The notes under the pieces: model-generated
Told to the model about the DNA's origin: nothing
The model's input: only the letters and a program-made list of their open reading frames with translations
Database searches by the model: none
DNA from: an uncultured Gemmatimonadota bacterium
GTDB lineage: Bacteria > Blakebacterota > Blakebacteria > Blakebacterales > Blakebacteraceae
DNA length: 64,000 nucleotides
Assembly: GCA_964637695.1 (NCBI GenBank)
Contig: CAZWVF010000003.1
Coordinates: 14,838-78,837, forward strand
Direction: 5' to 3'
Position numbers and translations under genes: made by a program
In this document: positions 862 to 22,841 of the stretch, one piece after another
Position numbering within the stretch: the first letter of the stretch is position 1
Layout of the letters: the number at the start of each line of letters is the position of its first letter

Positions 862-876
862 TTCGAACGTTCGTTC
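862..876. promoter_or_regulatory. candidate operator TTCGAACGTTCGTTC (contains the 10-bp perfect palindrome CGAACGTTCG) in the thiolase/tetR divergent promoter
   Basis: Perfect palindrome 864-873, 29 bp upstream of the tetR ATG. An identical 15-mer recurs at 22010-22024. Confidence 0.5.
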
Positions 877-897
877 TGCAGCGTTCCGATCGAATCG

Positions 898-1575
898 ATG
901 AACCGGTTAACCCCGACTGCAGTGACAGATACGAAGATGGCCGATAACGAGACAGAAGCCAATTCCATATCAGGAGAACGATCAGCCGCCAAACTGGAGA
1001 AACTGCTGACTGTTGCGGCCGAACTGATGGCCGTGCAGGGTTACGACCAGACCTCTGTGCGCGACGTAGCGCGGGAAACGGGCTTCAGCCTGGCCGGGAT
1101 GTACTACTACTTCCAGAGCAAAGAGGATCTGCTGTACCAGATCCAGTACCGCACCTTTGACTCTCTGCTTCAGGAGCAGGAGGGCATCTCCAGGGGTGAG
1201 GGGAGTGCCGAGGAGAGGCTTCGTCTCTTCGTTCAGAATCATCTCTCATTCTACACCACGCATTTCAACGAGATGAAAGTCTGCACTTTCGAACTTCATT
1301 CCTTGAAGGATGAGCGATACACAACCATCGAGTCGCTCCGCCGGAAGAACTTCAAGATCGCCATGGAAATCGTAAGAGAGATCGTCGAGGGATCCGGCCG
1401 GCCGGATGACGGAGGAGAGGTTGTCCGTCATTACACGCTTTTCATTTTCGGAATGCTCAATTGGATTTTCATGTGGTTCGATCCGGAGCGCGATGCGCCT
1501 CTCGAAAAACTGAGTGACGAACTGGTACAACTGGCGCTGCACGGACTGCGGGACGGCAGTTCACGTGGTGCCTGA
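898..1575 (+). CDS. TetR/AcrR family transcriptional regulator
   Basis: N-terminal HTH signature LLTVAAELMAVQGYDQTSVRDVARETGFSLAGMYYYFQSKEDLL. Divergent from the thiolase gene. A palindromic operator candidate lies 29 bp upstream. Alternative start at M14 (position 937). Confidence 0.85.
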   Translation: MNRLTPTAVTDTKMADNETEANSISGERSAAKLEKLLTVAAELMAVQGYDQTSVRDVARETGFSLAGMYYYFQSKEDLLYQIQYRTFDSLLQEQEGISRGEGSAEERLRLFVQNHLSFYTTHFNEMKVCTFELHSLKDERYTTIESLRRKNFKIAMEIVREIVEGSGRPDDGGEVVRHYTLFIFGMLNWIFMWFDPERDAPLEKLSDELVQLALHGLRDGSSRGA

Positions 1576-1617
1576 CAGCCTGCCGACAGAGGACAGGACA
1601 GAAAAGGAAATCGGGAA

Positions 1618-2580
1618 ATGACACTCTTTCCTTCCAGACCAGCAAGTGAGTTCGATTTTCAGGAGATCCTGTACGAAAAGAAGGACCTCGTAGCCCGAAT
1701 AACGATAAACCGGCCGAAGGCTTACAATGCCTATACGACCCATACCCTCCAGGAACTGATCACGGCATTTACCGATGCTGCGAACGACGACGGAGTGGGG
1801 GTCATAATTTTCACAGGTGCGGGTGACAGGGCCTTTTGCACCGGGGGGGACGTCAAGGAGTACGCCTCGGTTTACACGCAGCGTCCGAGGGACTACTGGA
1901 AGTATATGGGTCTCTTCTCCGGTTATATCGAAAGCATCCTGAAAACCGGTAAGGTGACGATAGCGCGCCTGAACGGCATGGCGGTCGGAGGCGGGAATGA
2001 ATCGCAGCTTGCCTGTGATCTGGCCGTGATGGCCGATGACACTTATATCGCTCAGGTGGGAACGAGTGTGGGCAGTGTGGCCTGCGGTGGTGCCACCCAG
2101 TGGCTCTCCATAGTCGTCGGTGACCGTCGCGCCCGTGAGATCCTCTTTCTGAATCACAAGATACCAGCCGGGCAGGCGCTCGAATGGGGCCTGGTCAACC
2201 GGGTGGTCCCCAGAGACCGGTTGGATGAGGCGGTGGATGAGATGGCCCAGGAGCTGCTGGACAAATTCCCCGAATGCACACGCTACACAAAGGCGCAGCT
2301 CAATTACTGGAAAGAGTCAGTCTGGTACTCGACTGTCGGCCATGCACGTGACTGGCTCAGCACTCACTTCACATCAATGGAACCGTACGAGGGAATGACC
2401 GCCTTCGTGGAGAAGCGCCAGGCCCGTTATCGCGAACTTCGGGAGAAAGCAGCTTCAGGCGGCAGCAGTGAATTCCTGTGGGGACCCTACTCCCATACGT
2501 GCCAGGTATGCGGAGCCGCTGGTATTCCGGCAGAATTTGAATACTGCGGAGTGTGCGGGGCCAAACTGGAGAAAGAATAA
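1618..2580 (+). CDS. MenB/BadI-like crotonase-superfamily enzyme with a C-terminal CxxC-x11-CxxC zinc ribbon. Candidate 2-ketocyclohexanecarboxyl-CoA hydrolase (BadI) or dihydroxynaphthoyl-CoA synthase-type hydrolase.
   Basis: ILYEKKDLVARITINRPKAYNAYT...IFTGAGDRAFCTGGDVKEY...RLNGMAVGGGNESQLACDL closely follows the MenB/BadI pattern (MenB: ILYEK..GIAKITINRP..NAFRP...ILTGAGDKAFCSGGDQ). GGAAA RBS-like stretch before ATG 1618. C-terminal CQVCGAAGIPAEFEYCGVCGAKLEKE. Confidence 0.8.
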   Translation: MTLFPSRPASEFDFQEILYEKKDLVARITINRPKAYNAYTTHTLQELITAFTDAANDDGVGVIIFTGAGDRAFCTGGDVKEYASVYTQRPRDYWKYMGLFSGYIESILKTGKVTIARLNGMAVGGGNESQLACDLAVMADDTYIAQVGTSVGSVACGGATQWLSIVVGDRRAREILFLNHKIPAGQALEWGLVNRVVPRDRLDEAVDEMAQELLDKFPECTRYTKAQLNYWKESVWYSTVGHARDWLSTHFTSMEPYEGMTAFVEKRQARYRELREKAASGGSSEFLWGPYSHTCQVCGAAGIPAEFEYCGVCGAKLEKE

Positions 2581-2591
2581 AGGAGAGATCG

Positions 2592-3341
2592 ATGGAGCTG
2601 GGACTCGACGGCAGGGTTGCCCTTGTAACCGGAGGCGCAAGGGGGATAGGCGCAGCCATTTCACTGGAGCTGGCCCGCCAGGGATGCAGCATTGCGATTG
2701 TCGATATCAGCCCTGCAGATGCGATGAAAGACCTGATTGCCATGATCGATGAGCAGGGAGGCAGAACCCTGGTTCTGCAGTCGGACGTGTCGAAATTCGC
2801 TGAAGCCGAAAAATGTATTGAGTCGGTTCGGACAGATCTGGGAACTCTCGATATCGTGGTCTGCAATGCAGGCGTCAACAGGGATGGCGTTATCTGGAAG
2901 ATGACGGAGGAATTGTGGGATGAGGTTCTGGATATCAACCTGAAGGGCTGCTTCAATTTCTGCAGAGCTGCAGCCAGGGTTTTCCGCGAGCAGGGTCACG
3001 GCAAAATCGTGAATATCGCCTCGATCAACGGCCTGAGGGGCAAATTCGGGCAGAGCAACTATGCTGCTTCGAAGGGGGGCATAATCGCGCTGACCAAATC
3101 TGTCGCCGTTGAACTCGGTCGCTTCGACGTCAATGTCAATGCCGTGGCTCCAGGTATGGTCATGACCGATATGGCCGTTGACATGCCGCAGGAGTTTCTC
3201 GATCAGGCCATCGAAGAGACGGTTCTGGGTCGAATTGCCGAACCCGGGGAGATCGCACACCTGGTGGCATTTCTCTGTTCCGATTACGCCCGCCACATAA
3301 CAGGCGAAGTGATCAAGATAGACGGCGGACAGTATATCTGA
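2592..3341 (+). CDS. short-chain dehydrogenase/reductase (FabG/BadH-like 3-oxoacyl / 2-hydroxyacyl-CoA dehydrogenase)
   Basis: LDGRVALVTGGARGIGAAISLELARQGCSIAIVD Rossmann motif, NAG motif (VCNAGV) and catalytic YAASK. AAGGAGAG RBS at 2581-2588 before ATG 2592. The track ORF begins upstream at 2553, which is probably spurious. Confidence 0.85.
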   Translation: MELGLDGRVALVTGGARGIGAAISLELARQGCSIAIVDISPADAMKDLIAMIDEQGGRTLVLQSDVSKFAEAEKCIESVRTDLGTLDIVVCNAGVNRDGVIWKMTEELWDEVLDINLKGCFNFCRAAARVFREQGHGKIVNIASINGLRGKFGQSNYAASKGGIIALTKSVAVELGRFDVNVNAVAPGMVMTDMAVDMPQEFLDQAIEETVLGRIAEPGEIAHLVAFLCSDYARHITGEVIKIDGGQYI

Positions 3342-3377
3342 CGATATAGAGACCGCAAGAGGAGGAGAGATCGTGGA

Positions 3378-4151
3378 ATGAGTGAAAACAGTGAACTGAC
3401 CAGGTATGAGGTCCGCGAGGATGTAGCGTATATTACCCTCGACTCCCCTCCTTTGAATATCATGACCATTGCGATGATGGATGAGATCAGTGAACTGCTG
3501 GAGAAAGCCGAATCTGACCCATCGGTTAAGGCGGTAGCCTTCACTGCCGAAGGAAAGGCCTTCAGCGGCGGCGCAGACATCGGAGAGCACCGTCCCGAGC
3601 AGGTCGAAGGGATGATCGGTTCGTTCGGACGACTCTTTAATAAGCTGGGTACTCTGGAACTTCCGGTTGTCATGGCTGTGAACGGGGCAGCGCTGGGTGG
3701 TGGATTCGAACTGGTGATGATGGCGGATATCCTGCTGGCAACCCCTGAAGCCACATTTGGACAGCCCGAGATTCGACTCGGATTCTTCGCTCCCGCAGCA
3801 ATAGTCCGTCTGCCCGACCTGGTCGGGACTGCGCGGGCTATTGAGATCACCTGTTCGGGGAAAACGTATGCCGCTGCCGAAATGCGTGAGATGGGTGTGG
3901 TTACACAGATCGTTTCAGAGGAAAACCTGGAGGACACTCTGGAAACCGTACTGAAGGACTTTCGAAGGTCGAGTCCCCTGGTGATGAGAATGAATGTACG
4001 TACCTTGAAAAGTCTGAAAGGGATTGGATTTGTTGAAGCGCTGGCGGAAGCGGAAAAAGTATTCCTCGAGAAACTGATGGCGACTGAGGAGCCTATTGAA
4101 GGGATAGCCTCCTTTTATGAGAAGAGACGTCCGGAGTGGAAGAACAGGTGA
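3378..4151 (+). CDS. enoyl-CoA hydratase/isomerase (crotonase family; BadK/Dch-like)
   Basis: YITLDSPPLNIMTIAMMDEISELL...AVAFTAEGKAFSGGADI...AVNGAALGGGFELVMMAD are crotonase-fold motifs. GAGGAGAG RBS before ATG. Confidence 0.85.
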   Translation: MSENSELTRYEVREDVAYITLDSPPLNIMTIAMMDEISELLEKAESDPSVKAVAFTAEGKAFSGGADIGEHRPEQVEGMIGSFGRLFNKLGTLELPVVMAVNGAALGGGFELVMMADILLATPEATFGQPEIRLGFFAPAAIVRLPDLVGTARAIEITCSGKTYAAAEMREMGVVTQIVSEENLEDTLETVLKDFRRSSPLVMRMNVRTLKSLKGIGFVEALAEAEKVFLEKLMATEEPIEGIASFYEKRRPEWKNR

Positions 4152-4193
4152 TCATGTGATGGAACTTATTGCAGGGGATCCGGGAGTGATGCG

Positions 4194-6443
4194 ATGCACA
4201 CGGTTGTAATAGGCGCCGGGGCTCTGGGAGGCCTGATAGGTGCTCAACTCCACATGGCTGAGAAGAAAGTCACGATGGTCGAGATCAATCAGGCCAGAGC
4301 ACGCCTGATCAACGAGACGGGTATTTACGTCTCAGAGGGGCAGAAGGGGGAACGGTGCGTTCCGGTTACGGTAGCTACTTCCTGCGAAGGCCTCGAACCT
4401 GCCGATCTGATATTCGTGGCTGTGAAGAGCTATCAGACCGATAAAGCAACTCGCAGCGTGCTGCCCCTGATGGGTCCCGACAGCATGGTTCTTTCAATGC
4501 AGAACGGCATTGGGAACACAGATGTGATGGCAGACATCATCGGACCCGAACGCGTGCTCTGCGGAATCACGTATCACAGTATCCAGCATACGGGGCCTAA
4601 CAGACTTCGCTTCAGACCGGGTATAAAGCCGATCCAGATTGCACCGTTTGACGGGAAAATCACACCAGGGATAGAGTCGATCGGTGAACTCTTCACAAGT
4701 GCAGGCCTGGCAACAGAGATTCTTGAGAATATCGATAACGTCATATGGCAGAAACTCCTGCATAACGCCGTCGTTAATCCCGTCTCCGCTCTTTCAGGTC
4801 TGACGTGCAGGGAACTGCTCGATGACGAAGACCTTCAGGACTTCATGCGCGACATGTGCATGGAAATCATCGAGGTTATGAAGGCAAAGGGGATCCCGAT
4901 TATCGACGACGAGGATCCATACAGGCCGGTAACGAATTCACAGAGAGCTCTGGGCAAGAACCGTCCTTCGATGTGGCAGGACCTCGCCCGTGGATTTCGG
5001 ACGGAAGTCGATGCACTCAACGGTGCAATCGTCGTTGAGGCTGAGCGCCTCGGCCTGCCGGCGCCACTCAACCGGACCATCGTCCGTCTGATCCATTCAA
5101 GTGAACGTCAGGGATTCATGCGCCGGGAAGAGATCGCAGAGACACTGAAAAGCGCTGCCGGAGTCATGCCCATACCTGTCTCTCGTCCTACAGTACCGGA
5201 GAAACAGGAAGACATCCCGTCCGGCAGGATCCCCCTGCAGACCGCGCCGGCATTGAAGGAACTGATACGTGAATATTATCAGGAGATCCAGAAGGGCAGT
5301 GAAAATCCCGACCAGCTGTTGGCGTGGGCATCCGGAATGGCTCCTGTTGAGATCATCCGGGCGATGGGGATACTGCCCTACTTCCCGGAAAATCATGCAG
5401 CACTTATCGGATCGAGCCGGCAATCGGGCAAATACATCGCCAGAGCTCTGGCAGAGGGATTTTCGCAATTCGCAAGTACTGCGATGACCTGTGACATAGG
5501 AGCCGTGCTGGTCGGCGACAGTCCTCTGGTGAGTGTTTACGATATCAAGGGTCCTCCCAGAGCCGATGTCATGGTATTCAGCACCAACTTCGGACAGAGG
5601 CTCATCAGGTGGTTCGACTTCTACGGCAGCCACTTCGGTGTTCCCGTTCTGGGGCTTCATCCTCCGGTCGCCCTGAGTGACGTGGGCAAGATCGAAGTCG
5701 ACGCTGCAGCCGGACAGATGATGCGTCTGACTGCAGAGCTGGAAGAGATTGCCGGCAGGAAGCTCGATCCTGACCGTCTTGCAGAAGTCGTAGACCTGTC
5801 GGCACAGTCATCCCGGTTGTGGAGCGAGATACTCGATCTGGCCCGCAACGTGCCGTCTCCGTTCACGACTTTCGATCTCTTCGTGCATATGGCCCCGATG
5901 GTGATGATGAGAGGGACTCAGGAGGCGATAGAGTACTACACGATCCTGAAGGCTGAAATTGAAGAACGGGTCTCCAGCATGCAGGCCGCGGTTCCCGGAG
6001 AGAGATACCGATTTTACTGGGAGGGTCCGCCGGTGTGGGGTGCCCTGCGCACTCTGGCCAAAATGTTCTTCGACAACCGGATTGCCCTGATCGTTTCAAC
6101 ATACTGCAACATGTGGGCGCTCGAGGGACTCGATCCTGGCAACCCGTTCGAGAGCATGGCCCGTACCTATACGGGGATCTTTCCGAACCGCTCCGATGAT
6201 TTCAAGGCAACTTACCTGGTATCGCAGTTTGAGGAACACGGTATAGACTGCGTCGTATATCATGACGGTCGCACCGCTTCGGAGCATAGTAACGTCCGCT
6301 ACGGGCTCGAATTGAAGTTGAGAAGGAAGACCGGCCTGCCTTCCATAGTGATAGAGGCCGATTCGCATGACCTCCGTCTCTTCTCTGCACCTGAAGTCGA
6401 GCGTCAGCTGACCGATTTTCTGGAACAACAGGAGGAACTTTGA
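4194..6443 (+). CDS. fusion protein. N-terminal 2-dehydropantoate 2-reductase (KPR/ApbA)-like NAD(P)-binding domain (~310 aa), then a C-terminal benzoyl-CoA reductase / 2-hydroxyacyl-CoA dehydratase-family catalytic subunit (~430 aa).
   Basis: N-terminus MHTVVIGAGALGGLIGAQL (Rossmann) ... DALNGAIVVEAERLGLPAPLNRTIVRLI (KPR C-terminal helix region). From ~aa 335: LKELIREYYQEIQK...MAPVEIIRAMGILPYFPENHAALIGSSRQ..., which is paralogous to the ORF at 8217..9479 and has the HgdB/BcrB-family look. Continuous ORF with no stop or frameshift. An internal GGAG-2nt-ATG at ~aa 320 has poor RBS spacing. Confidence 0.7.
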   Translation: MHTVVIGAGALGGLIGAQLHMAEKKVTMVEINQARARLINETGIYVSEGQKGERCVPVTVATSCEGLEPADLIFVAVKSYQTDKATRSVLPLMGPDSMVLSMQNGIGNTDVMADIIGPERVLCGITYHSIQHTGPNRLRFRPGIKPIQIAPFDGKITPGIESIGELFTSAGLATEILENIDNVIWQKLLHNAVVNPVSALSGLTCRELLDDEDLQDFMRDMCMEIIEVMKAKGIPIIDDEDPYRPVTNSQRALGKNRPSMWQDLARGFRTEVDALNGAIVVEAERLGLPAPLNRTIVRLIHSSERQGFMRREEIAETLKSAAGVMPIPVSRPTVPEKQEDIPSGRIPLQTAPALKELIREYYQEIQKGSENPDQLLAWASGMAPVEIIRAMGILPYFPENHAALIGSSRQSGKYIARALAEGFSQFASTAMTCDIGAVLVGDSPLVSVYDIKGPPRADVMVFSTNFGQRLIRWFDFYGSHFGVPVLGLHPPVALSDVGKIEVDAAAGQMMRLTAELEEIAGRKLDPDRLAEVVDLSAQSSRLWSEILDLARNVPSPFTTFDLFVHMAPMVMMRGTQEAIEYYTILKAEIEERVSSMQAAVPGERYRFYWEGPPVWGALRTLAKMFFDNRIALIVSTYCNMWALEGLDPGNPFESMARTYTGIFPNRSDDFKATYLVSQFEEHGIDCVVYHDGRTASEHSNVRYGLELKLRRKTGLPSIVIEADSHDLRLFSAPEVERQLTDFLEQQEEL

Positions 6444-6497
6444 ATCGTTCTATTGATAAGACAGGAAACGGGCAGGTTCCGACAAACGGGTGTTGCC

Positions 6498-7283
6498 ATG
6501 TCTGAAGAGAAGAGGATTGTAGCAGCGATTGACGTGGGTACGGAATGTATCAAGGCGGTCGTCATGGATGAAACTACCGCCATCCTGGGTCGTTCCATTA
6601 TTCCTGCCAGCGGTTATTTCCGGCATCGTGTCAAGGAAGCTCTCGACGGCGCACTCGATGACGCCCGATTGGAGCATTCTGATATCGATTCAATTTCGTC
6701 AACCGGTTTCGGCGCCAGCTGTGTCGAGGAGGCGGCAGCTCAACTGGGCGAGACTGCATGTCACGCACGGGGTGCGTTCTTCCACCATAAAGGTGCCATG
6801 TCTGTCATAGACATCGGCGGCCGCGATCCAAAGGTCCTTTACGTCAGCGAAGAGGGTCAGGTCCTCGAGGCCCACATGGTGAGACGGTGTGCGGTCGGTA
6901 TAGGCACCTTTCTCATGTTCACCGCCCGCCACCTCGACGTTCATCCGACACGCCTTCAGGAGCTGGCGGCCGAGGCCGGAGAACCGGCGGACATCGGAAG
7001 TTACTGTTCGGTATTCGCAGGATCGGAGGTCCTCGAACAGCTCCGGGAAGGTACCAGTCGTGAGAATATCGCCTCGGGAGCAATGCGCTCGGTGGCCGAG
7101 AGGATCTTCGAGATCGGCGGCCTGCAGGAACCGGTACGCGTTACAGGCGGAGTCGCTGAATATTTTCCAGGGGTGCTCAAATCTCTCTCTGAAATGACAG
7201 GGATCGAGATCGAGGCTGTTCCGGAACCGATCATGGCGGGAGCAATCGGAGCTGCCCTGAAGAGTCTGAACAGCAGTTCTTGA
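6498..7283 (+). CDS. BcrAD/HgdC-family ATPase subunit (CoA-substrate-specific enzyme activase fold) with both [4Fe-4S]-bridging Cys motifs
   Basis: MSEEKRIVAAIDVGTECIKAVVMDE (ASKHA phosphate-1 motif), VRRCAVGIGTFLM and IGSYCSVFAGSEVL (conserved Cys pair), IMAGAIGAAL at the C-terminus. The track ORF starts 45 nt earlier (6453). ATG 6498 is the chosen start. Confidence 0.8.
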   Translation: MSEEKRIVAAIDVGTECIKAVVMDETTAILGRSIIPASGYFRHRVKEALDGALDDARLEHSDIDSISSTGFGASCVEEAAAQLGETACHARGAFFHHKGAMSVIDIGGRDPKVLYVSEEGQVLEAHMVRRCAVGIGTFLMFTARHLDVHPTRLQELAAEAGEPADIGSYCSVFAGSEVLEQLREGTSRENIASGAMRSVAERIFEIGGLQEPVRVTGGVAEYFPGVLKSLSEMTGIEIEAVPEPIMAGAIGAALKSLNSSS

Positions 7284-7293
7284 ATTTCCATCG

Positions 7294-8094
7294 TTATATA
7301 TCCATGATGATGTCTGCTTGTCCGGTACTCTCTTTCGCAAACAGTGCTGCTCCAAAAGCTCCGCTGAGTTGTGGTTCAGGCGGTATCAGCACCTCTCCAC
7401 GTATATACTTCTTCATCACTTCGAGCATGATGTCATTGTAGGCCACGACCCCTCCCGTCATCACAACAGGTCCCTCCAGGGTATCCATTTCGATCACCCT
7501 TCTGGCGACAGACTCATATGCACTCTTTACCATGTCTTCCAGATTCTCACCCTCTCTTATCCTCGTGAGTATCTCTGAGGAAGCGAAAACGGTGCAGAAA
7601 CTGCTCAAAGCCACATCGTTTTCAGACTTCCGGGCCAGTTCGTTCATCTGGTCCATCTCGATCTGCAGTTTGCCGGCGATCTCTTCCAGAAATGTGCCTG
7701 TCCCCGCTGCACACTTGCGGTTCATCTTGAAACCGGTTCGTTTCCCTTCGCCGTCCAGCTTTATCACTTTGGTATCCTGGCCTCCGATATCTATTACGGT
7801 AATCTGTCGAGGGAAGTGATGAAATGCTCCTTTTGAGTGGCAGGCGATCTCTGTTTTCACATTATCGGCAAGCGTGACATTCTTCCGGCCGAAACCTGTA
7901 GCAGTGATGTGCTGAATCGATTCCCGCTCAGTGGAGCTTGAAAAGAGCAGAGCCTCAAATGTCGAATGGATGGACGATTGCAGATCGGCACCGGAACGCC
8001 CGATGGAGTGTCCGATTATCTCAGCTTTCTCATCTATCAGAACAGCTTTGATGTAAGATGTGCCGACGTCTATGCCTGCAGAGAGTCCAGCCAC
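7294..8094 (-). CDS. second BcrAD/HgdC-family ATPase subunit. It is convergent with the previous gene and stops 10 bp apart from it.
   Basis: MAGLSAGIDVGTSYIKAVLIDE, KMNRKCAAGTGTFLE, LSSFCTVFASSEIL, LSGAFGAALFA are canonical activase/BcrD motifs, including the Cys pair. Confidence 0.8.
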   Translation of the reverse strand: MAGLSAGIDVGTSYIKAVLIDEKAEIIGHSIGRSGADLQSSIHSTFEALLFSSSTERESIQHITATGFGRKNVTLADNVKTEIACHSKGAFHHFPRQITVIDIGGQDTKVIKLDGEGKRTGFKMNRKCAAGTGTFLEEIAGKLQIEMDQMNELARKSENDVALSSFCTVFASSEILTRIREGENLEDMVKSAYESVARRVIEMDTLEGPVVMTGGVVAYNDIMLEVMKKYIRGEVLIPPEPQLSGAFGAALFAKESTGQADIIMDI

Positions 8095-8216
8095 GGTTAT
8101 CTCCGATCTGCTGTCTCGGTTTCGACTTTACAGCAGCAGGTTTAGGATACCACCTCCGCTCCCCTTTCTGTTACTGTCTAATTATCATCCCTCTGTTTTT
8201 CAGTGTGGTCACTCGT

Positions 8217-9479
8217 ATGGAGCAGATCGATATGGCAGAAGAGAAGAAACAGCTCAGAAAGAAAATTGAAGCGACGACTGAGATGGCCCGGATAATGGGC
8301 GAATACTTTTATGAACTGGATAAGGCAGCGAAGTCACCCGAAAAGAAAGTGGCATGGTGCACCAGTGTCGGTCCCGCGGAGCTGCTGCGTGCAATGGGAT
8401 TCTACGTTCACTTTCCCGAGAACCACGGCGCCATACTGGGAAGCAGCCGGATGGCCTCCGACCTGATCCCCTATGCAAACGCTATCGGTTACTCGCCCGA
8501 TATCTGTTCATACCTGACCTCCGATGTCGGGGCATATCTGCAGGGAGTCACTCCTCTCTCCAGGGTATATGAGGGAATTGAAAGCATACCTGAACCAGAT
8601 GTCCTGGTGTTCAATACCAACCAGTGCAGGGCCGTTCAGGACTGGCTTGCCTGGTTTGGCAGGGAGTTCGACGCTCCGGTTCTGGGAATACATACACACA
8701 GAGGGATATCGGATGTTACCAACCTCCACATAAATTCGATAACCGCACAACTGGAGGCACTGGTCAATCCACTGGAGGAAATCATGGGAAGTCCTCTGGA
8801 TCCCGCCGAGCTGGAAAGGGTGGTGGGACTCTCCCGTGAATGTTCTGAATTATGGAAAAAGGTTCTGGATACGGCAGCAGCAAGGCCGTCTCCATTCACT
8901 TTCTTTGACGGTACCATTCACATGGGTCCGGCGGTCGTTCTGCGTGGAACCCAGCCGGCAATAGACTACTACAAACTGTTGCTGGCCGAACTTGAATCGA
9001 GAATATCCAGTGGTGAAGGGGCGGTAGAGGGAGAAGAGTTCAGACTTTACTGGGAGGGGATGCCGATATGGGGCAGGCTGCGCGCTCACTCCGAACTCTT
9101 TGCCTCCAACCGTGCGTGCGTGCTTGCCTCCACATACTGCAACAGCTGGATCTTCACCCGGTTCGATGGAGCTGATCCCTTCAAAAGCATGGCAAGGGCG
9201 TATACTGAACTATTCATCGTCCGTTCCGACGAGATAAAGGAGCAGTATATAAAGGAGATGTTCGACACCTTCCAGATCGATGGCATCATCTACCACGATG
9301 CCAGGACCTGTCTCGACAACACCAACAGCCGGTTCGGCATGCCTCAGAGACTGGAGGAGGAAACGGGTATACCGAGCCTGACCATAAATGGTGACCTGAA
9401 CGACCTCCGGTGTCTCAGTGATGAACAGACCAATACCAGTATCGAAGCGTTCATAGAGCAGCTCGAGGAGATGCGATAG
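8217..9479 (+). CDS. benzoyl-CoA reductase / 2-hydroxyacyl-CoA dehydratase-family catalytic subunit (paralogue of the C-terminal domain of 4194..6443)
   Basis: MEQIDMAEEKKQLRKKIEATTEMARIMGEYFYELDKAAKSPEKKVAWCTSVGPAELLRAMGFYVHFPENHGAILGSSRM. It shares the FPENH block and overall collinearity with the fused subunit. The track ORF extends to 8058 with a low-complexity Cys/Leu-rich N-terminus that overlaps the divergent gene and is judged spurious. Start at ATG 8217 or 8232. Confidence 0.75.
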   Translation: MEQIDMAEEKKQLRKKIEATTEMARIMGEYFYELDKAAKSPEKKVAWCTSVGPAELLRAMGFYVHFPENHGAILGSSRMASDLIPYANAIGYSPDICSYLTSDVGAYLQGVTPLSRVYEGIESIPEPDVLVFNTNQCRAVQDWLAWFGREFDAPVLGIHTHRGISDVTNLHINSITAQLEALVNPLEEIMGSPLDPAELERVVGLSRECSELWKKVLDTAAARPSPFTFFDGTIHMGPAVVLRGTQPAIDYYKLLLAELESRISSGEGAVEGEEFRLYWEGMPIWGRLRAHSELFASNRACVLASTYCNSWIFTRFDGADPFKSMARAYTELFIVRSDEIKEQYIKEMFDTFQIDGIIYHDARTCLDNTNSRFGMPQRLEEETGIPSLTINGDLNDLRCLSDEQTNTSIEAFIEQLEEMR

Positions 9480-9480
9480 C

Positions 9481-14253: not shown

Positions 14254-14269
14254 TCAGAGGAGTTGTAGA

Positions 14270-14956: not shown

Positions 14957-17452
14957 CTAAAAGAGGTCGTCCAGTTCGTCCGCCGAGCCTTCCGGCATCT
15001 CTCCCTGCTCCTGAAGAGTCCTCTGCAGCAGTTCGCTCTCCAGTTTCGTAAACATCGGATCGAGCTGATAAATGAAGTAGGGGATACCCTCATCCTGGTT
15101 CAATCTGGCTGTAAGGGCCTCCACCAGGTCGGGAGCGCCGACAACGGCCACAACCTTTCCAGACGCATCCAATAGCTGGTATGCACCTGGTTCAGCCGGA
15201 ACTTCAGCAACCTGCCCGGCAGTGAAATCAAACCATTCACGCGGAGGCAGGGCAGCAGGCTCGATCTCCAGGCGGGTGTCGCAGCGCAGACAGCGGCCAC
15301 CTTCGGCTTCCGACCCGCTGCAGGTCAGACCCGGTTCCACGGTATTGAATGATCTGCGTTCTTCCAGGGCCGGCCGGGGCATCTCCTGCCGCTGCAACGC
15401 CGCGAATCCTTCTGCACACCCCGGATATGACGGAATTGAATCACGTTCAATCAATTGAAGCGAGATATCTCCGGAACCTCCCAGGAAGGAATCAACAGCT
15501 TCAGCAGTGCGTCTGGCGGAGGCAACAGCCTCTATAACCGATAGAGGGCCGGTGGCGAAATCGCCTGCAGCGAATACTTCCGGTCGATCAGTCGTGCCTT
15601 TCCCGGCATCGATCTTCAGAGGAGAGGCGTTGAAATCCCAGTCTGTCTCCTGACCGATAGCCAGGATCACACTGTCGGCGCGAAAGGAGCATTTTTCACT
15701 GTCGTCATATGTAGGAGAAAATCTCCCCTCCTGGTTAAAAACTGAGATACATCGTCTGAACTCGATACCCTTCACTGCTCCATCATCGCTGTGGATAGAA
15801 GTGGGTCCCCACCTGTGGTGGATGTTCACACCCTCTTCGAGGGCCTCCCTGATCTCCGTTTCGTATGCAGGTATCTCATCTTCAGATTCGAGGCAGAGCA
15901 GGTCGATCTTTTCGGCACCAAGTCTCCAGGCCGACCGTGCCACATCGATGGCAACGTTGCCGCCGCCTACGATCACACAACTGCCGTGCAGATCAGGAGC
16001 TGTTCCGATGTTGATCTCACGCAGGAATTCCAGTCCCCGGTAAACCCCGTCCAGATCGCTTCCAGGCAGGGGAATCGTTTTGCTCCGGCCGGCACCAATG
16101 GCGAGAAGCAGGGCGTTATACCCGTCGCCGAGCAGCTCCTCCACGGTCCCATCACTTCCCAGCTCGAAACCGGTGACTACTTCAATGCCAAGATCGGTGA
16201 TTTCGGTCAGTTCACGGTCCAGCCCCCCGCGTGGCAGTCGAAAGGCAGGGATGGCGGTCCGGAGCATGCCCCCGATACCCTCTTCTTTGTCCAGCAGTGT
16301 CACTCGATGTCCGGCAGCGATCAGGAAATAAGATGCCGTCAGCCCGGCCGGGCCGGCACCGATGACGGCAACTTTCTTCCCGGAGGGGGCGGGAGTCGGG
16401 AAGGCACTCTTCCACCTGCCGTCGTCCTCTTCGGCGGCTGTCCTCTTTATCGCCCTGATTGAAATCGGTTCGTTGATTTCACCGCGGCGGCAAACCTGCT
16501 CACAGGGGTGATAGCAGATGTGTCCGAGAGTGAAAGGCATTGGTGCACGTTCCCGAACGACAGCGGCAGCGTCGGCAAAGCGGCCTTCGGCTGCAAGGCC
16601 CACGTAGAGAGGCACGTCGGTTCCGGCAGGGCAGCCGGCCCGGCAGGCGACCAGTGCATCGTGTCGATCTCCTGCAGGAAGATCCCGGTCGCGCAGCGCA
16701 CCTGTTGGACAGACTTCCACGCAGGCTGTGCAGAAATGGCAGTCCGACTCGGCCAGTGAAGGAGCTTTCGCGCCGATCCAGACCCTGCCCTCACTGACCG
16801 TGAAGCCAATGGCGTCCACTCCGCGCAGATCCCTGCATGCTCTCACGCAGCGAGTGCAGCCGATGCACAGATTGTAATCACGCGTTAAGAGCGGATCACT
16901 GGTTGCCTGCGGTCTGTTTTCGGGATGGAAACGACCCAGATTGGCGGGCAGACCGACATATTCCGCAACCCTTTCAAGTTCGCAGTTGCCCAGCAGAGAG
17001 CAGCATCGTTCATCGACCGGGACATCTGTTGAACAGGGTTCCCTGCTGCAGCCGACCTTCTGTGCACACGTCAGGCATGCGTGAGGATGATGGTGGAAAA
17101 TCCCGGCCAGTTTCTCCCGGCGGAGTTCTTTCAGATCTTCTCTTTCGACCTGAACCTGCATGCCCTCTTCGACCCGGGTCATACAGGCTCGAACCGGTTC
17201 TGCCAATTCTTCCACGGCAACCATGCAGAGGCCGCAGCCTTCATCGGGTCTTTCAGCAGACCGGTCGGAGGTGATCTTCTCACTGCCCTGGAATACTTCG
17301 GGCCATTCTTCGAGACCGTCCCAGGGTGGCAGGCCGGGATGAGCGCAGAAGGCAGGTATGTAGAGACCGGCCCCCCTTGAAGCTTTCAGAATAGTGGTAC
17401 CGGATGGAACCTCGACGGCACTGCCATTAATAGTAAGCCTGACGCTGCTCAT
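14957..17452 (-). CDS. multidomain iron-sulfur flavoprotein. It has an N-terminal 2Fe-2S ferredoxin-like domain, NuoG/HndD-type 4Fe-4S modules and a GltD-like (glutamate synthase small-chain) FAD/NAD(P)H domain. It is probably an NAD(P)H:ferredoxin oxidoreductase serving the adjacent reductase.
   Basis: MSSVRLTINGSAVEVPSGTTILKA...CGLCMV (2Fe-2S), CIGCTRCVRACRDL and CHFCTACVEVCPTGAL (4Fe-4S), CRAGCPAG...HICYHPCEQVCRRGE, then VAVIGAGPAGLTASYFLIAAGHRVTLLDKEEGIGGMLRTAIP (GltD dinucleotide fold), and an acidic C-terminal ~150 aa of unknown function. All plus-strand ORFs between 15.2 and 17.4 kb are antisense shadows. Confidence 0.8.
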   Translation of the reverse strand: MSSVRLTINGSAVEVPSGTTILKASRGAGLYIPAFCAHPGLPPWDGLEEWPEVFQGSEKITSDRSAERPDEGCGLCMVAVEELAEPVRACMTRVEEGMQVQVEREDLKELRREKLAGIFHHHPHACLTCAQKVGCSREPCSTDVPVDERCCSLLGNCELERVAEYVGLPANLGRFHPENRPQATSDPLLTRDYNLCIGCTRCVRACRDLRGVDAIGFTVSEGRVWIGAKAPSLAESDCHFCTACVEVCPTGALRDRDLPAGDRHDALVACRAGCPAGTDVPLYVGLAAEGRFADAAAVVRERAPMPFTLGHICYHPCEQVCRRGEINEPISIRAIKRTAAEEDDGRWKSAFPTPAPSGKKVAVIGAGPAGLTASYFLIAAGHRVTLLDKEEGIGGMLRTAIPAFRLPRGGLDRELTEITDLGIEVVTGFELGSDGTVEELLGDGYNALLLAIGAGRSKTIPLPGSDLDGVYRGLEFLREINIGTAPDLHGSCVIVGGGNVAIDVARSAWRLGAEKIDLLCLESEDEIPAYETEIREALEEGVNIHHRWGPTSIHSDDGAVKGIEFRRCISVFNQEGRFSPTYDDSEKCSFRADSVILAIGQETDWDFNASPLKIDAGKGTTDRPEVFAAGDFATGPLSVIEAVASARRTAEAVDSFLGGSGDISLQLIERDSIPSYPGCAEGFAALQRQEMPRPALEERRSFNTVEPGLTCSGSEAEGGRCLRCDTRLEIEPAALPPREWFDFTAGQVAEVPAEPGAYQLLDASGKVVAVVGAPDLVEALTARLNQDEGIPYFIYQLDPMFTKLESELLQRTLQEQGEMPEGSADELDDLF

Positions 17453-17510
17453 TATATGACCTTATATGATCTTCATGGGGCTGGAACTAGCCACATGGGA
17501 TCCTTGAAGA

Positions 17511-17786
17511 TTACCAGGAGTGCTCGATTGCACCAGGTTCACAGGCCGCCGTGCAGGGCAGGGGAGGCTGCGAGCCGACCGGTTTGCATTCGGCGCACGA
17601 GTACTTGATCTTTTTCCTGTGTTCATCCGTGACGGCTGCCACGACATCGTCGTAATCGTCGGTAATCATTTCCAGTACCCCCGCCGGGCACGCAGCAACG
17701 CAATCATTACAGGATGTGCACAGGTTGCTGTCGATCGTGATGAAGAATTCTCCGGAGCCGTCCTTGTAACCATAGTTTGCTCTCAT
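17511..17786 (-). CDS. 2[4Fe-4S] ferredoxin, Alvin/Thauera Fdx type (probable electron donor to benzoyl-CoA reductase)
   Basis: CTSCNDCVAACP and CAECKPVGSQPPLPCTAACEP. The second cluster has the extended Cx2Cx8Cx3C spacing seen in the Allochromatium/Thauera benzoyl-CoA-reductase ferredoxin. The start overlaps the stop of the upstream ATPase gene (ATGA). Confidence 0.8.
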   Translation of the reverse strand: MRANYGYKDGSGEFFITIDSNLCTSCNDCVAACPAGVLEMITDDYDDVVAAVTDEHRKKIKYSCAECKPVGSQPPLPCTAACEPGAIEHSW

Positions 17787-18658
17787 GACCTTACTTTTCC
17801 TTCTTTCTCGGCCAGAGCCCTGGCAAAGAGAGCACCTCCCAGAGCACCGGCGATCTGGGTGTCATGTTTCGGCTCGAGTGCCTCCACACCCATTTGTTTT
17901 GTCAGTCGCCTGACGACTCCGGCGTTCTTGGCGATGCCTCCGGTTATCGCGAAATCTTCCTCCACACCTATCCGTTCGAGAAGGGCGAAGACACGATCGG
18001 CCATGGCGGAACAGTACGCAGCCAGTACATCGTTCTTGGGCCATCCCTGACGCAGCAGACCGGTTGCCTCCGATTTGGCGAATATTACACATGTACTGCT
18101 TACAGGCTCCGGTTCCTCATCTATATCGAAGCTCAGATCCCCTATCTCCTCGATCGAGATCTCGAGCAGGTCGGCGAACACTTCCATGCCGCGTCCCGTT
18201 CCGGCGGCACATTTGTCGTTCATCAGGAACTCCTGGACCTTCCCCTTCTCGTCGATCCGGATCGCCTTGCAGTCCTGGCCGCCCATATCCAGAATCGTCC
18301 TCACGGCAGGGCCGTACATGTAGTTCGCACCTCGTCCGTGACAGGCGATCTCTGTAATTGCCCGGTCAGCAAAAGGTACGTTCACGCGCCCGTAGCCGGT
18401 ACCCACTACGTAATTGAGGTCATCCAGGGTCATTCCGGTGTCTTCAAAGGCCCAGTTCATGGCATTCTGTGCACTCTCGGGGCTGTCTGAACCGGTCCGC
18501 ATGTTGCTGTAGGCGAAGAGTTCTCCATCGGTCATTATCACCGCCTGCGAACTGACCGATCCGACGTCGACTCCGGCCGATATCACACCGGCCTGTTGCC
18601 AGTCTCTGTCAGGATCTCTCCAGTTGTATTCTTTCCAGCGCCAGTACTCGGTCGTCAT
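17783..18658 (-). CDS. class I benzoyl-CoA reductase ATPase subunit (BcrA/BzdQ/BadF-like, 291 aa)
   Basis: AGVDVGSVSSQAVIM, NDKCAAGTGRGME, TCVIFAKSEATGL, IAGALGGALFA are activase-fold motifs with the Cys pair. Its start overlaps the upstream gene's stop by 4 nt. Confidence 0.8.
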   Translation of the reverse strand: MTTEYWRWKEYNWRDPDRDWQQAGVISAGVDVGSVSSQAVIMTDGELFAYSNMRTGSDSPESAQNAMNWAFEDTGMTLDDLNYVVGTGYGRVNVPFADRAITEIACHGRGANYMYGPAVRTILDMGGQDCKAIRIDEKGKVQEFLMNDKCAAGTGRGMEVFADLLEISIEEIGDLSFDIDEEPEPVSSTCVIFAKSEATGLLRQGWPKNDVLAAYCSAMADRVFALLERIGVEEDFAITGGIAKNAGVVRRLTKQMGVEALEPKHDTQIAGALGGALFARALAEKEGKVRS

Positions 18659-19455
18659 GACTGCTCACCCCTTTCGCTGTCTGCTGCGGCCCTTTCGGCT
18701 GCCACCAGGGCGGCACCTATGGCTGCTGTGTACTCCGGATCGGGTGGTATCAGCAGTTCTGTCTCCAGGTCGCGGCCGAGTGAATCTATGAAGCCGACGT
18801 TGTAGGCCAGACCACCAACCAGAGCCACTGCCGGTTCTATTCCGACCCGCCGGACCATTGAGCTTATCCGGCTGGCTATGGCATCGTGGACAGCGCGGGC
18901 GATGTCTTCCTTCGGGGTCTTTGCATGAACCAGGCTCACCACTTCCGACTCGGCGAACACAGCACACTGGGCATTCATCGGGATCTCTCGATCCGACCTC
19001 AGAGAGAGAGCTCCGAACTCTTCCAGCGGAACTTCCAGGGCGCGGGCCATCGACTCGGTGAAGGAGCCGGCTCCGGCCGCGCATTTTTCGTTTACGACGA
19101 AGTCGAGTACCTTGCCCCCCTCATCGCATCTGACACCGCGACCCTCTTCGGCACCCACGTCAATAACGGTCCGCACGTTGTCGAAGAAGAAGTGTGCTCC
19201 CCTGGCTGCCGCCCCGACCTCCGTAATGTCGTCACGGGCCATGGGGACATCTTTCCGGCCTGCTCCAGTAGAAGTGATGTTCGGGATTTCGCTGTAATCG
19301 AGGTCGGCTGTCTGTGATGCCTGTTTCAATGCCTCCTGAAGTGCACCCTCCGTGTCGAGCCCTGCCGTAACCAGCGACTTGCTGATAATCTCTCCGTCGC
19401 GGAGGAATACCACCTTGACATTCTTGGCACCCATGTCCACACCAATTGAAATCAT
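18655..19455 (-). CDS. class I benzoyl-CoA reductase ATPase subunit (BcrD/BzdP/BadG-like, 266 aa)
   Basis: MISIGVDMGAKNVKVVFL, NEKCAAGAGSFTE, QCAVFAESEVVSL, TAAIGAALVAA. AAGGGAG RBS 9 nt before ATG. Confidence 0.8.
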   Translation of the reverse strand: MISIGVDMGAKNVKVVFLRDGEIISKSLVTAGLDTEGALQEALKQASQTADLDYSEIPNITSTGAGRKDVPMARDDITEVGAAARGAHFFFDNVRTVIDVGAEEGRGVRCDEGGKVLDFVVNEKCAAGAGSFTESMARALEVPLEEFGALSLRSDREIPMNAQCAVFAESEVVSLVHAKTPKEDIARAVHDAIASRISSMVRRVGIEPAVALVGGLAYNVGFIDSLGRDLETELLIPPDPEYTAAIGAALVAAERAAADSERGEQS

Positions 19456-19479
19456 GAATGTAAACTCCCTTGTTCTTTA

Positions 19480-20790
19480 TCAGGCCATGGCCCGGCTCAG
19501 ATCGAGCGTCTCCATGAATGCATCGATCCGGGTCATGGTTCTGGCTTCATCGAATTCCCGCTCATCACCCATGTTTCCCTCGAATGTCATGACAGGGTAT
19601 CCTGCTTCCTGCAGGGCCAGCCTGTTCTCGGCTATTCCCACCGAAAGGCCTTCGCAGCCGCGGTTGTAATGCAGCATTACACCTTCGAGCTGCCACTCCC
19701 TGGCGATACGGATCATCATCTCGTTCTTGTAGCGGGGAGAATAGAAGTGCTGCCACTCCGGTTTGCTCAGGTTCCAGTCGGCCAGAACGCGCAGGGCCTG
19801 CTCGCGCGTTTCCAGCTTGATCCCCAGTTGTTCGGGAGTGGTCCGCGGGCCCCAGCTGCCGTCGGGTTTGACCTCCCAGATACCTATCAGGCCGAAAGTG
19901 TATAGTGAACCCACAGAAACCACTCCGAATTCCTCCAGATAGCGGAAAATCTTGAGGAAGCCCCAGGGAGGCTGTGTATCGGAGATCAGGCGGCACCTCT
20001 CGTTGGCTACCGCTGCAATTCCATTATCTACCCGATCCTGTACCTCGTCGCGGAGTTCCTCGTAGAAGTCAGCCACCGATCCGGCGTGCTTCTCAAGCGT
20101 GCCCAGCACGTAGAGAGAGTACATGGTCTTTTCATCCAGAGGAGCTGGTATCGCCTTGTTGAGGGTGCAGATCTCGGCCCAGAGGGAGGTACTGCGGCAC
20201 TCATTATTTACCGCCTCGATGAGCAGGTCGTCGTTATACTCACGACCCGTTACTTTTTCCATCCACTCGATACCATCCATCATCTGGCCCACCACGTAAT
20301 CGAGCCCATTGTCGTCCAGCTCTTCGTATGGACCGCATCCAACATCGATGCAGAAGCTGGGGATATCGGGCTCCATGTCGGTGACCACCTGGTACCATTT
20401 TGCATGGCTGCAGCAGATGTGATCCTGCCAGATGAAATCGGGTTTGGGGAATTTGCCTCCGAATGCATACTCGTCGAGCAGGATCGAACCCCAGTAGTTT
20501 CGCATGTAGGAACAGAGGTCACGGGCATAACCCGCCTTTTCAACCGCTTCCAGACATCGTGTGGAAAACTCCCTGTTAAATGCGATAGAGGCTCCGTAGG
20601 GCTCCGATGTTATCGACCTGACATCAGTTCCCAAACCGGCAGGGATGGCGTCGAATGACCATGCACCTCCAGCCCAGCGGATGGCTCCTTTTCCGTGGGC
20701 ATCTGCATAGTCGGTGTAGTATTCCTGCCTCAGTTCCTTTGCTTTATTCCAGCATTCCAGGGGCCTGGTGGGGTACTTTGCATCGGCCAT
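19480..20790 (-). CDS. class I benzoyl-CoA reductase catalytic subunit (BcrB/BzdO/BadE-like, 436 aa)
   Basis: 436 aa, HgdA/BcrB-family. AAGGAG RBS 6 nt before the ATG at 20790. Size and gene order match the BzdO/BcrB position. Confidence 0.8.
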
Positions 20791-20832
20791 CTCATGCTCC
20801 TTTAACCCGATCTTTAAGAGAATCCGGGTGAA

Positions 20833-21960
20833 TTAGAAAAGGTCCTCGTCGCTCAGCATCTCCAGGAACGCCTCCACACGGACCCTGAACTGTCCGAGCG
20901 GCACCGTGACATCGAATTCCAGGAAGAGTGTTTTTATTCCGGCCTCATGGAAGGCTTTCTGAAGTGCGGGGATATCCAGCTCATGCGGATCGCAGAACTT
21001 CTGCTGTATCAGGATTGCCCCGCTTGCATCGTAGTCCTTTGCAAGCTCAAGCACATGCGGAATACGGGTACGTACCGGCCAGTCTTTCGAGGGACAGGCG
21101 GGACGCTCAACGTAACGGCGGGCTATCGACTCGAGCGGATCTCCGCCGTTCGATTCTGCTTCATTCCAGAAATACCGCGTCCCGGTGCAGTGATCGTCGA
21201 TAACAACTGTCGCTCCTACCGACTCAACCATCTCGACGAAATCGGTATCGTCATCTTCGCTGCCGACCAGCATAAGACGTACTCCGGTGGAACGGCCGGT
21301 CGAGTGATCCTTCAACCGGGGGAGAACCCTCTCCATCTCCCGGTTGTGGTCCTCTTTCGCAGTGGTCTGGCTGGAAACGGTCAGGTACATGGCCTCCAAC
21401 CCGGTCAGTGGAGGATTCTCCTGTTGACGCAGGTCGTAGATTTCTTTCTGATGCCGGCGATTCCGGTTCATCAGTTTGATTCCGCCATTCAGCTTTTCAT
21501 CTGAAATCGGTTCACCCGACCACTCCTCCAGGGAACTCTTGAATTTCTCCAGTTCGCCCCTCAGGAATGGTACGGCTCGCTGGCTCTGCACATGATTGGG
21601 CATCGGCAGGTAGTAGCTGAAATCGATCGGAATGTGCATCTCCCAGCTAGAGAATGCCTGCCTGATGTGCAGGCACGACTGGGCTATCATGATGCCATCC
21701 AGGTAATCGAACCGGCCCTTCAATCCCTGTGCAAGGCAATCGCGGCAGAAGGGGCAGAACATGCCGAAGATATGGGGCTCGGTTAAGTCCTGAGGTTCAT
21801 GACTTCCCAGAATCCGCACCGGGAGGATATCGGCGGCACAGAGGATCTCTTCCGGAACGTATGTACAGAAGTATCCCATCACTTTTCCGCCTGTTTCCTC
21901 TTTCCAGTTCTGTGCGTAGGAATGGCGGTTTTCGGCCCATTTCTGGAACTGCTGCATCAT
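20833..21960 (-). CDS. class I benzoyl-CoA reductase catalytic subunit (BcrC/BzdN/BadD-like, ~375 aa)
   Basis: MMQQFQKWAENRHSYAQNWKEETGGKVMGYFCTYVPEEILCAADILPV is an HgdB/BcrC-family N-terminus. GGAGG RBS 8 nt before the ATG at 21960. The track start at 21978 uses a TTG with no RBS. Confidence 0.75.
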   Translation of the reverse strand: MMQQFQKWAENRHSYAQNWKEETGGKVMGYFCTYVPEEILCAADILPVRILGSHEPQDLTEPHIFGMFCPFCRDCLAQGLKGRFDYLDGIMIAQSCLHIRQAFSSWEMHIPIDFSYYLPMPNHVQSQRAVPFLRGELEKFKSSLEEWSGEPISDEKLNGGIKLMNRNRRHQKEIYDLRQQENPPLTGLEAMYLTVSSQTTAKEDHNREMERVLPRLKDHSTGRSTGVRLMLVGSEDDDTDFVEMVESVGATVVIDDHCTGTRYFWNEAESNGGDPLESIARRYVERPACPSKDWPVRTRIPHVLELAKDYDASGAILIQQKFCDPHELDIPALQKAFHEAGIKTLFLEFDVTVPLGQFRVRVEAFLEMLSDEDLF

Positions 21961-22007
21961 ATTTACTTCCTCCCGCAATTCGTGTGCAGCGCTTGCTACA
22001 ATATACT

Positions 22008-22027
22008 CGTTCGAACGTTCGTTCGAA
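22008..22027. promoter_or_regulatory. candidate operator CGTTCGAACGTTCGTTCGAA (overlapping palindromes CGTTCGAACG and CGAACGTTCG) in the promoter of the minus-strand benzoyl-CoA reductase operon
   Basis: It shares the 15-mer TTCGAACGTTCGTTC with the site at 862-876. It lies ~50 bp upstream of the ATG at 21960 (minus strand). Confidence 0.5.
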
Positions 22028-22836: not shown

Positions 22837-22841
22837 AAGCA

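Follow-up and report, generated by a model that had tools for sequence, protein, structure and literature searches.

A putative TetR operator shared by the tetR promoter and the benzoyl-CoA reductase operon promoter of an uncultured Gemmatimonadota bacterium

Two putative operators of one TetR regulator

This report concerns a palindromic DNA element that occurs twice in a 64-kb stretch of DNA from an uncultured Gemmatimonadota bacterium (assembly GCA_964637695.1, contig CAZWVF010000003.1, positions 14,838 to 78,837; hereafter the window), together with the TetR-family regulator encoded at 937-1575. Judging from sequence comparison, we consider it highly probable that the two copies are operators of this TetR protein, located at its own promoter and at the reductase promoter of a benzoyl-coenzyme A (CoA) degradation cluster. 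An earlier note on this DNA had proposed that one operator ties the tetR and reductase promoters together and that TetR is an autoregulated repressor. Comparative genomics supports this proposal by means of sites at 37 of 80 tetR genes, sites in front of bzdN and bcrC genes, and the position of the operators just after the -10 hexamers. The elements in question are as follows; loci of other genomes are denoted by L numbers.

827-856, plus strand: predicted sigma-70-type tetR promoter, TTGACG-18-TACGAT, from a promoter scan; both hexamers invariant in a four-genome alignment
862-879, no strand: predicted operator O(tetR), TTCGAACG-TT-CGTTCtgc, matrix score 20.1; footprint kept in L011, L014, L017 and L171
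937-1575, plus strand: TetR-family regulator (TetR_N and TetR_C_24 domains), 212 amino acids; the open reading frame opens at 898, the conserved start is ATG 937
22010-22027, no strand: predicted operator O(bzd), TTCGAACG-TT-CGTTCGAA, a perfect 18-bp dyad, matrix score 29.5, the window maximum
22033-22061, minus strand: predicted sigma-70-type bzd promoter, TTGACT-17-TAGAAT, from a promoter scan; conserved in L091 and L092

The switch may work in the following manner. The 18-bp dyad would be bound by a TetR homodimer, for which its 8-2-8 layout is suited. The bound repressor would then block initiation at both promoters, because the operator starts 5 bp past the -10 hexamer and covers the transcription start region. 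The bzdNOPQ operon for class I benzoyl-CoA reductase would be under the control of the perfect dyad at 22010-22027. The weaker dyad at 862-879 would give autoregulation of the tetR operon, in which had and other lower-pathway genes lie. The signal that lifts repression would most likely be an acyl-CoA intermediate, either aromatic or alicyclic, and benzoyl-CoA is the prime candidate. What we infer in this scheme is that the protein physically binds, in which direction it regulates and to which effector it responds.

Shape and conservation of the element

The 15-mer TTCGAACGTTCGTTC is present in exact copies at 862-876 and 22010-22024, as the earlier note had stated, and there is no third copy within the window. 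The extended form described for the second copy was also confirmed, as CGTTCGAACGTTCGTTCGAA at 22008-22027. The argument that such a recurrence is unlikely by chance fails, because the same window holds about nine further 15-mers that recur exactly, in direct or inverted orientation, and are unrelated to this one. In addition, mismatch-tolerant searches of the window for the 15-mer or the 10-bp palindrome gave no enrichment over dinucleotide shuffles.

The 10-bp palindrome CGAACGTTCG, which the note had taken as the symmetry unit, was mis-parsed. Inspection of the sequence in front of the TetR-orthologue genes of 80 genomes showed that the element is an 18-bp dyad, TTCGAACG-NN-CGTTCGAA, in which two 8-bp arms flank a centre of 2 bp that is free to vary. 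We rejected CGAACGTTCG as the operator, as it needs a central TT or AA. It is a by-product of the TT at the centre, because orthologous sites centred on GC, AT or CT lose the palindrome and retain the 8-2-8 arms. In the site at 862-879 the left arm is perfect, and the three mismatches are the outer three bases of the right arm. A weight matrix derived from the orthologous sites was used to scan the window; after the two sites listed above came a third-ranked site with a score of only 10.9 against a maximum of 15.2 in 30 shuffles, so that no further operator stood above noise within the 64 kb.

The orthologues were taken from 80 metagenome-assembled genomes labelled as Zixibacteriota, Fibrobacteraceae, Krumholzibacteriota, Eisenbacteria, Gemmatimonadota, Acidobacteriota and Planctomycetota, and their TetR proteins are 37-67% identical to that of the window. 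We read 10 kb on either side of each orthologue locus, in addition to the 64 kb of the source genome, and counted as a site any dyad with three mismatches or fewer. In the 1.10 Mb of the 80 orthologue loci there were 72 sites, compared to about 4 expected. At least one site was found in 61 of the 80 loci, lying directly upstream of tetR in 37 loci and about 3.8 kb upstream in 21. In a pattern-free k-mer test, which does not depend on the consensus-based selection of sites, TTCGAACG/CGTTCGAA was the commonest 8-mer at -150 to +60 of the tetR orthologues (30 of 80 loci, compared to 0.8 expected). Positions 2-7 of the dyad are 90-97% conserved among the orthologous sites. Pure chance is thus ruled out by cross-genome conservation and not by the statistics of the 15-mer, which are weak. 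What was observed directly is the sequence of the element and its geometry, how far it is conserved, that it co-occurs with the regulator, and what the regulon contains across genomes.

Position relative to promoters and start codons

Both operators begin 5 bp past a -10 hexamer. At tetR the hexamer ends at 856 and the operator begins at 862; on the minus strand of the reductase side the hexamer ends at 22033 and the operator begins at 22027. When the sites of all loci were considered together, the sequence TTGAC was located 24-32 nt upstream at 49 of 87 sites, as against 1.8% of random positions. An operator that abuts the -10 hexamer and covers the start region is in the classical position for a repressor, as far as this can be read from the predicted promoters.

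When the sequence upstream of tetR in the window was aligned with that of three other genomes, only three blocks were invariant, namely TTGACGC, TACGAT and T.TCGAACGT..GTTC, and the tetR upstream region of L171 has the same conserved pattern. In front of bzdN, L091 and L092 have -35 and -10 hexamers identical to those of the window and keep the dyad, while the spacer has diverged. The phylogenetic footprint therefore consists of a -35, a -10 and an operator that are invariant while the spacers vary.

The motif was said to lie about 50 bp upstream of the start of the reductase operon, and this agrees with the bzdN start codon ATG 21960, which has GGGAGGAAG in front of it. For tetR, the upstream position stands but the distance of 29 bp has to be revised. 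The 15-mer ends 21 bp ahead of ATG-898, and the true start is probably ATG-937, because the 86%-identical relative in L171 has no ATG at the position of 898 and the TetR homologues are 208-212 amino acids long; the motif would then lie about 60 bp upstream of the gene.

The earlier note also named the divergent thiolase gene as a target. This was not established, since the four-genome alignment of the tetR-thiolase intergenic region showed neither a second operator nor a conserved thiolase promoter, and no conserved block beyond the tetR -35, -10 and operator. The repressor might act on the thiolase gene as well.

In the closest relatives of the window the tetR sites are consistently imperfect in the outer right arm, and the sites in front of bzd and bcr genes are near-perfect. 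This imbalance of the arms would fit leaky autoregulation combined with tight control of a costly ATP-dependent reductase.

These data bear on the possibility that the recurrence is a matter of chance, or that the palindrome acts in RNA as a terminator or as a hairpin in the 5'-untranslated region. Exact 15-mer pairs are indeed common in the window, and a simple scan flags 22009-22028 as terminator-like on the plus strand. However, no plus-strand gene ends before 22009, and it is the sequence, not just the pairing, that is conserved across phyla. The tetR-proximal sites keep the left arm and lose the outer right arm, which weakens a hairpin, and the element holds a fixed register to the -35 and -10 hexamers, with an excess of sites far above expectation. 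We regard this explanation as having a negligible probability; conservation, the k-mer test, the promoter register and the reverse test described below effectively refute it.

Genes that follow the element

The gene directly after a site was tetR in 37-38 loci, and in 20-21 loci it was an HcrB-like gene that opens a 4-hydroxybenzoyl-CoA-reductase-like operon. A bzdN gene followed the dyad in L023 (a true bzdN orthologue) and in L091-L093. In L020 and L049 it was bcrC of a Thauera-type reductase (478 and 493 bits on TIGR02263, cut-off 421), and in L015 it was oah/bamA (588 bits, cut-off 464). Thiolase and FadB-like genes were also found directly downstream of some sites, and next to the sites of the more distant Gemmatimonadota orthologues the downstream genes were those for extracytoplasmic function (ECF) sigma factors, acyl-CoA synthetase and YpdA. 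The had gene lies about 7 kb downstream of tetR in the same clusters, and in L020 and L023 it stands directly before the junction of the operator and the bcr or bzd genes.

The sites about 3.8 kb upstream of tetR precede the gene for the flavin adenine dinucleotide (FAD) subunit that opens a three-subunit molybdenum hydroxylase operon, of which tetR is the last gene. The large subunit of this hydroxylase scored 922 bits on the model for the alpha subunit of 4-hydroxybenzoyl-CoA reductase, just below the cut-off of 994.55, compared to 582 bits for XdhA. The dyad was found 36-120 bp upstream of 20 of the 32 tetR-linked operons of this kind (in L015, L016, L021, L024, L027-L034, L039, L042, L044, L045, L047, L055, L057 and L075). 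The window itself contains no molybdenum hydroxylase of the 4-hydroxybenzoyl-CoA reductase type.

The same relation was examined in reverse, starting from 80 metagenome loci that encode bzdN relatives of 64-91% identity. The three closest relatives (84-91% identity) have a perfect dyad upstream of bzdN. In seven more distant loci (L117, L125, L136, L142, L147, L165 and L170), bzdN is directly preceded by a gene in the same orientation for a TetR orthologue of 38-45% identity. The dyad is located upstream of tetR in six of these seven, and the seventh begins inside tetR so that its upstream sequence is missing. That is, these loci have the compact architecture operator-tetR-bzdNOPQ. Among the remaining 70 loci, all of which lack this TetR and are not close relatives, none has a dyad with three mismatches or fewer within 400 bp upstream of bzdN. 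Three different gene architectures thus tie motif, regulator and benzoyl-CoA reductase together; the dyad is present at bzdN, or at tetR-bzdN, together with the TetR and absent from that upstream region of bzdN in the 70 loci without it.

It could be argued that the dyad is a real regulatory site of some other protein and that TetR is just a frequent neighbour. One-third of the tetR-linked hcr-like operons have no recognisable site, and the binding of TetR to the dyad is deduced from sequence comparison. Still, in several phyla the site is positioned directly upstream of tetR, as is classical for an autoregulated gene, and bzdN carries the site only where this TetR is present. Moreover, the 8-2-8 dyad has a length that fits a TetR dimer, and it agrees with the published consensus for PaaR, which is discussed below. 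We therefore think that another binding protein is very unlikely. HipB, encoded at 22468-22836, was considered as a binder of the dyad and rejected, as other loci that carry the dyad have no hipBA.

Some results weigh against the proposal that the dyad is the operator of this TetR at benzoyl-CoA-pathway genes. About 12 of the 32 hcrB-like operons beside a tetR orthologue have no site at three mismatches or fewer, and therefore the control is not universal. The neighbours of the more distant orthologues in Gemmatimonadota are genes for ECF sigma factors, acyl-CoA synthetase or YpdA, and not aromatic genes; this family of TetR orthologues may therefore not be specific to benzoyl-CoA. In addition, the sites used for the weight matrix were chosen by consensus, which inflates its information content.

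The TetR regulator and its probable effector

The regulator matches PF00440 with 54.1 bits (cut-off 24) and PF17932 (TetR_C_24) with 66.3 bits (cut-off 26.4). Its helix-turn-helix (HTH) recognition region, SLAGMYYYF.SKEDLL, is invariant in 27 aligned orthologues that are 49-86% identical to the window protein, and this invariant region matches the invariant operator. The AlphaFold model is all-helical, with a predicted local distance difference test score (pLDDT) of 87 and a predicted template modelling score (pTM) of 0.81, and its best 50 PDB fold matches are TetR-family proteins. The protein thus shows the marks of the TetR family, namely an HTH domain with a helical C-terminal domain and a palindromic operator of about 15-20 bp, here predicted at promoters that include its own.

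The nearest solved folds of the model are Thermus PfmR, AibR with isovaleryl-CoA, KstR2, BkaR and Bacillus FadR with stearoyl-CoA, and a PDB sequence search returned the same relatives. Almost all of these nearest solved relatives are repressors that sense acyl-CoA. By analogy, this supports an acyl-CoA effector but does not prove it.

Such relatives also raise the question of whether the TetR and its operator constitute a general acyl-CoA or beta-oxidation regulator of the FadR/PfmR type, which senses fatty or short-chain acyl-CoAs and for which the reductase operon is merely a recruited target. In the window, L011, L017 and L171, the gene divergent from tetR encodes a thiolase and is followed by a FadB-like gene, and acyl-CoA synthetase genes adjoin the distant orthologues. 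PfmR is the closest fold, with FadR among the next, and Bacillus FadR is the top NCBIfam match. However, the score on the FadR equivalog (NF053878) is 57.9 bits and does not reach the cut-off of 200, and the thiolase is PcaF-like, a type typical of ring-cleavage lower pathways. Genes of the benzoyl-CoA pathway (the HcrB-like operon, bzdN, bcrC and oah) dominate directly after the operators, and tetR is built into bzd operons in seven loci. We consider a general acyl-CoA regulator unlikely and prefer a regulator devoted to the benzoyl-CoA pathway.

In L122 (position 3867) and L137 (position 3873), a more distant TetR (25-27% identity) is encoded beside a symmetrically altered dyad, TTTGAACGnnCnTTCAAn, in which C/G is changed to T/A at the same position in both arms. 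This alteration suggests co-evolution of operator and regulator in a paralogue.

The gene cluster and the remainder of the window

The two copies of the element bracket a 21-kb catabolic cluster that consists of two convergent transcription units. The genes are listed below.

3-710, minus strand: thiolase, PcaF-like, divergent from tetR and cut by the window edge; regulon membership not established
1618-2580, plus strand: Oah/BadI-like crotonase
2592-3341, plus strand: SDR
3378-4151, plus strand: Dch-like crotonase
4194-6443, plus strand: PanE/ApbA-HGD-D fusion, 749 amino acids
6498-7283, plus strand: activase
7294-8094, opposite strand to the first activase: second activase
8217-9479: second HGD-D subunit
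13186-14253, plus strand: had, 6-hydroxycyclohex-1-ene-1-carbonyl-CoA dehydrogenase (TIGR03201, 449.7, cut-off 338.65)
14957-17452, minus strand: Fe-S flavoprotein of 831 amino acids, last gene of the bzd-side unit, with 2Fe-2S, NuoG-like 4Fe-4S and GltD-like flavin/NAD(P) domains
17783-18658, minus strand: bzdQ (TIGR03192, 441.5, cut-off 380.2)
18655-19455, minus strand: bzdP-like ATPase subunit, BcrAD/BadFG family (CoA_E_activ, 216, cut-off 125.4)
19480-20790, minus strand: bzdO (TIGR03191, 692.2, cut-off 448.6)
20833-21960, minus strand: bzdN, subunit N of bzd-type class I benzoyl-CoA reductase and first gene of the operon (TIGR03190, 485.9, cut-off 453.8)

The N, O and Q subunits exceed their equivalog cut-offs and the fourth subunit belongs to the BcrAD/activase family, which identifies the enzyme as a class I reductase of the bzd type. 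From its domains, the 831-amino-acid protein is probably an electron-donor module for this reductase and may reduce ferredoxin.

Besides Had, the rightward unit holds an ADP-forming and an AMP-forming acyl-CoA synthetase and a peroxiredoxin. The gene order from 1618 to 7283 downstream of tetR is the same in L171. The region 4194-9479, with its PanE/ApbA (2-oxoacid reductase) part, HGD-D (2-hydroxyacyl-CoA dehydratase, similar to benzoyl-CoA reductase) parts and activases, looks like a second ATP-dependent radical enzyme system in the tetR operon. The PanE-HGD-D fusion and the first activase are conserved in L171, whose TetR is 86% identical.

From 22.4 to 64 kb the genes are unrelated to the cluster: HipBA, a sulfatase, a penicillin amidase, pyrimidine biosynthesis, peptidases and toxin-antitoxin modules. 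The HipB/HipA toxin-antitoxin pair at 22468-24074, just past the bzd promoter, marks the right edge of the aromatic cluster. Another TetR gene, not related to the first (38647-39399, minus strand), is located upstream of a gene for an MMPL/RND-like transporter of 1155 amino acids fused to a LolA-like domain (region 35183-39399). The stretch 59890-63570 holds a 35-nt fragment in three to four direct copies. The fragment resembles the 3' end of a tRNA (T-arm and acceptor, minus strand), and each copy is followed by ATTGTCATCTATTTGG. These copies separate toxin-antitoxin pairs, namely a Gp49/HigB-like gene, MNT with HepT, and AbiEii with AbiEi. Neither ARAGORN nor Rfam gave an intact tRNA gene at 59-64 kb, and the region looks like a set of tandem att-site remnants or a toxin-antitoxin island.

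Significance

To our knowledge, anaerobic aromatic degradation has few known regulators, and BzdR, BadM/BadR, BamVW, BgeR and MbdR all come from cultured Proteobacteria. The present analysis offers a sequence-defined operator and its predicted cognate TetR for the benzoyl-CoA reductase operons of uncultured sediment phyla, with a regulon predictable from sequence and a short list of candidate effectors. Such a compact pair of repressor and operator might also be of use as an acyl-CoA biosensor.

We further speculate, with somewhat less than even confidence, that the TetR and TTCGAACGNNCGTTCGAA form an undescribed cross-phylum master switch of the anaerobic benzoyl-CoA pathway, possibly related to PaaR of Thermus. 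The switch would govern class I reductases of both the bzd and the bcr type, the 4-hydroxybenzoyl-CoA-reductase-like enzyme, Oah/BamA and Had in uncultured Zixibacteria-like, Krumholzibacteriota, Eisenbacteria, Acidobacteriota, Gemmatimonadota and Planctomycetota genomes. If this is true, the dyad could be used in metagenomes as a genomic marker for delimiting regulons of aromatic degradation, with the uncharacterised PanE-HGD-D radical enzyme of the same operon included. No description of this regulator or operator was found in the literature searched.

Comparison with known systems

BzdR, BadM and BadR belong to protein families other than TetR: BzdR is an XRE/shikimate-kinase-like protein, BadM is a member of the Rrf2 family and BadR of the MarR family. 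Together with BamVW and BgeR, they are known regulators of the benzoyl-CoA pathway (PMC4424350, PMC6678401), and they resemble the present TetR in having the same job, that is, the control of benzoyl-CoA reductase or bam genes. BamVW is a two-component system (PMC4424350).

PfmR (3VPR), AibR (5K7H), KstR2 (4W97) and Bacillus FadR (3WHB/3WHC), the nearest folds and sequences, gave TM-scores of 0.79-0.88 when normalised to target length. All of them belong to the TetR family and repress catabolic pathways that depend on CoA, and for most of them the crystals contained an acyl-CoA ligand. However, they are only 22-29% identical in sequence to the TetR of the window, and their regulons are different: phenylacetate and fatty acids for PfmR, isovalerate for AibR, steroid rings for KstR2 and fatty acids for FadR. 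We take their operators to be different from the present dyad.

By comparison of consensus sequences, the closest known operator is that of PaaR (TTHA0973) of Thermus thermophilus HB8. According to PMC6651687, PaaR is a TetR repressor whose effector is phenylacetyl-CoA, and its promoter-derived consensus, quoted there from Sakamoto et al. 2011, is CNAACGNNCGTTNG. The dyad core cGAACGnnCGTTCg matches this consensus exactly, and CGAACGTTCGTTCG, present at 864-877 and 22012-22025, fits it as well. In contrast, the consensus AACnAACGTTnGTT, derived by REPSA, is spaced differently from the dyad. PaaR regulates aerobic-hybrid paa genes, whereas the genes concerned here are bzdNOPQ, had and crotonases; no paa gene was found in the 22-kb cluster, which thus does not have the make-up of a PaaR regulon.

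In function, the nearest known counterpart is MbdR of Azoarcus/Aromatoleum sp. CIB. This TetR protein represses both its own gene and the operon for a class I (bzd-like) aryl-CoA reductase, it recognises an 18-bp palindrome, ATACN10GTAT, over the -10/+1 region of sigma-70 promoters, and its inducer is 3-methylbenzoyl-CoA, the first CoA ester of the pathway (PMC4424350). The present system resembles it in having a TetR protein, a class I reductase operon together with its own gene as targets, and an 18-bp palindrome at -10/+1, all of which are here predicted from sequence. The operators themselves differ, as ATACN10GTAT is unrelated to TTCGAACGNNCGTTCGAA, so that the present operator is not of the MbdR type. 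No entry named MbdR was among the 60 best PDB sequence matches of the window TetR (weakest E about 3e-5), which is weak evidence because many of these entries bear generic names. The host of MbdR is a cultured beta-proteobacterium, whereas the present hosts are uncultured members of the FCB group, Acidobacteriota and Gemmatimonadota.

The mechanism proposed here is conventional. A TetR repressor, a palindrome that overlaps the promoter and relief by a CoA ester of the pathway make up a well-known type of system; the present family, with its operator, seems to be a member of that type not described before, and it is widespread in uncultured phyla.

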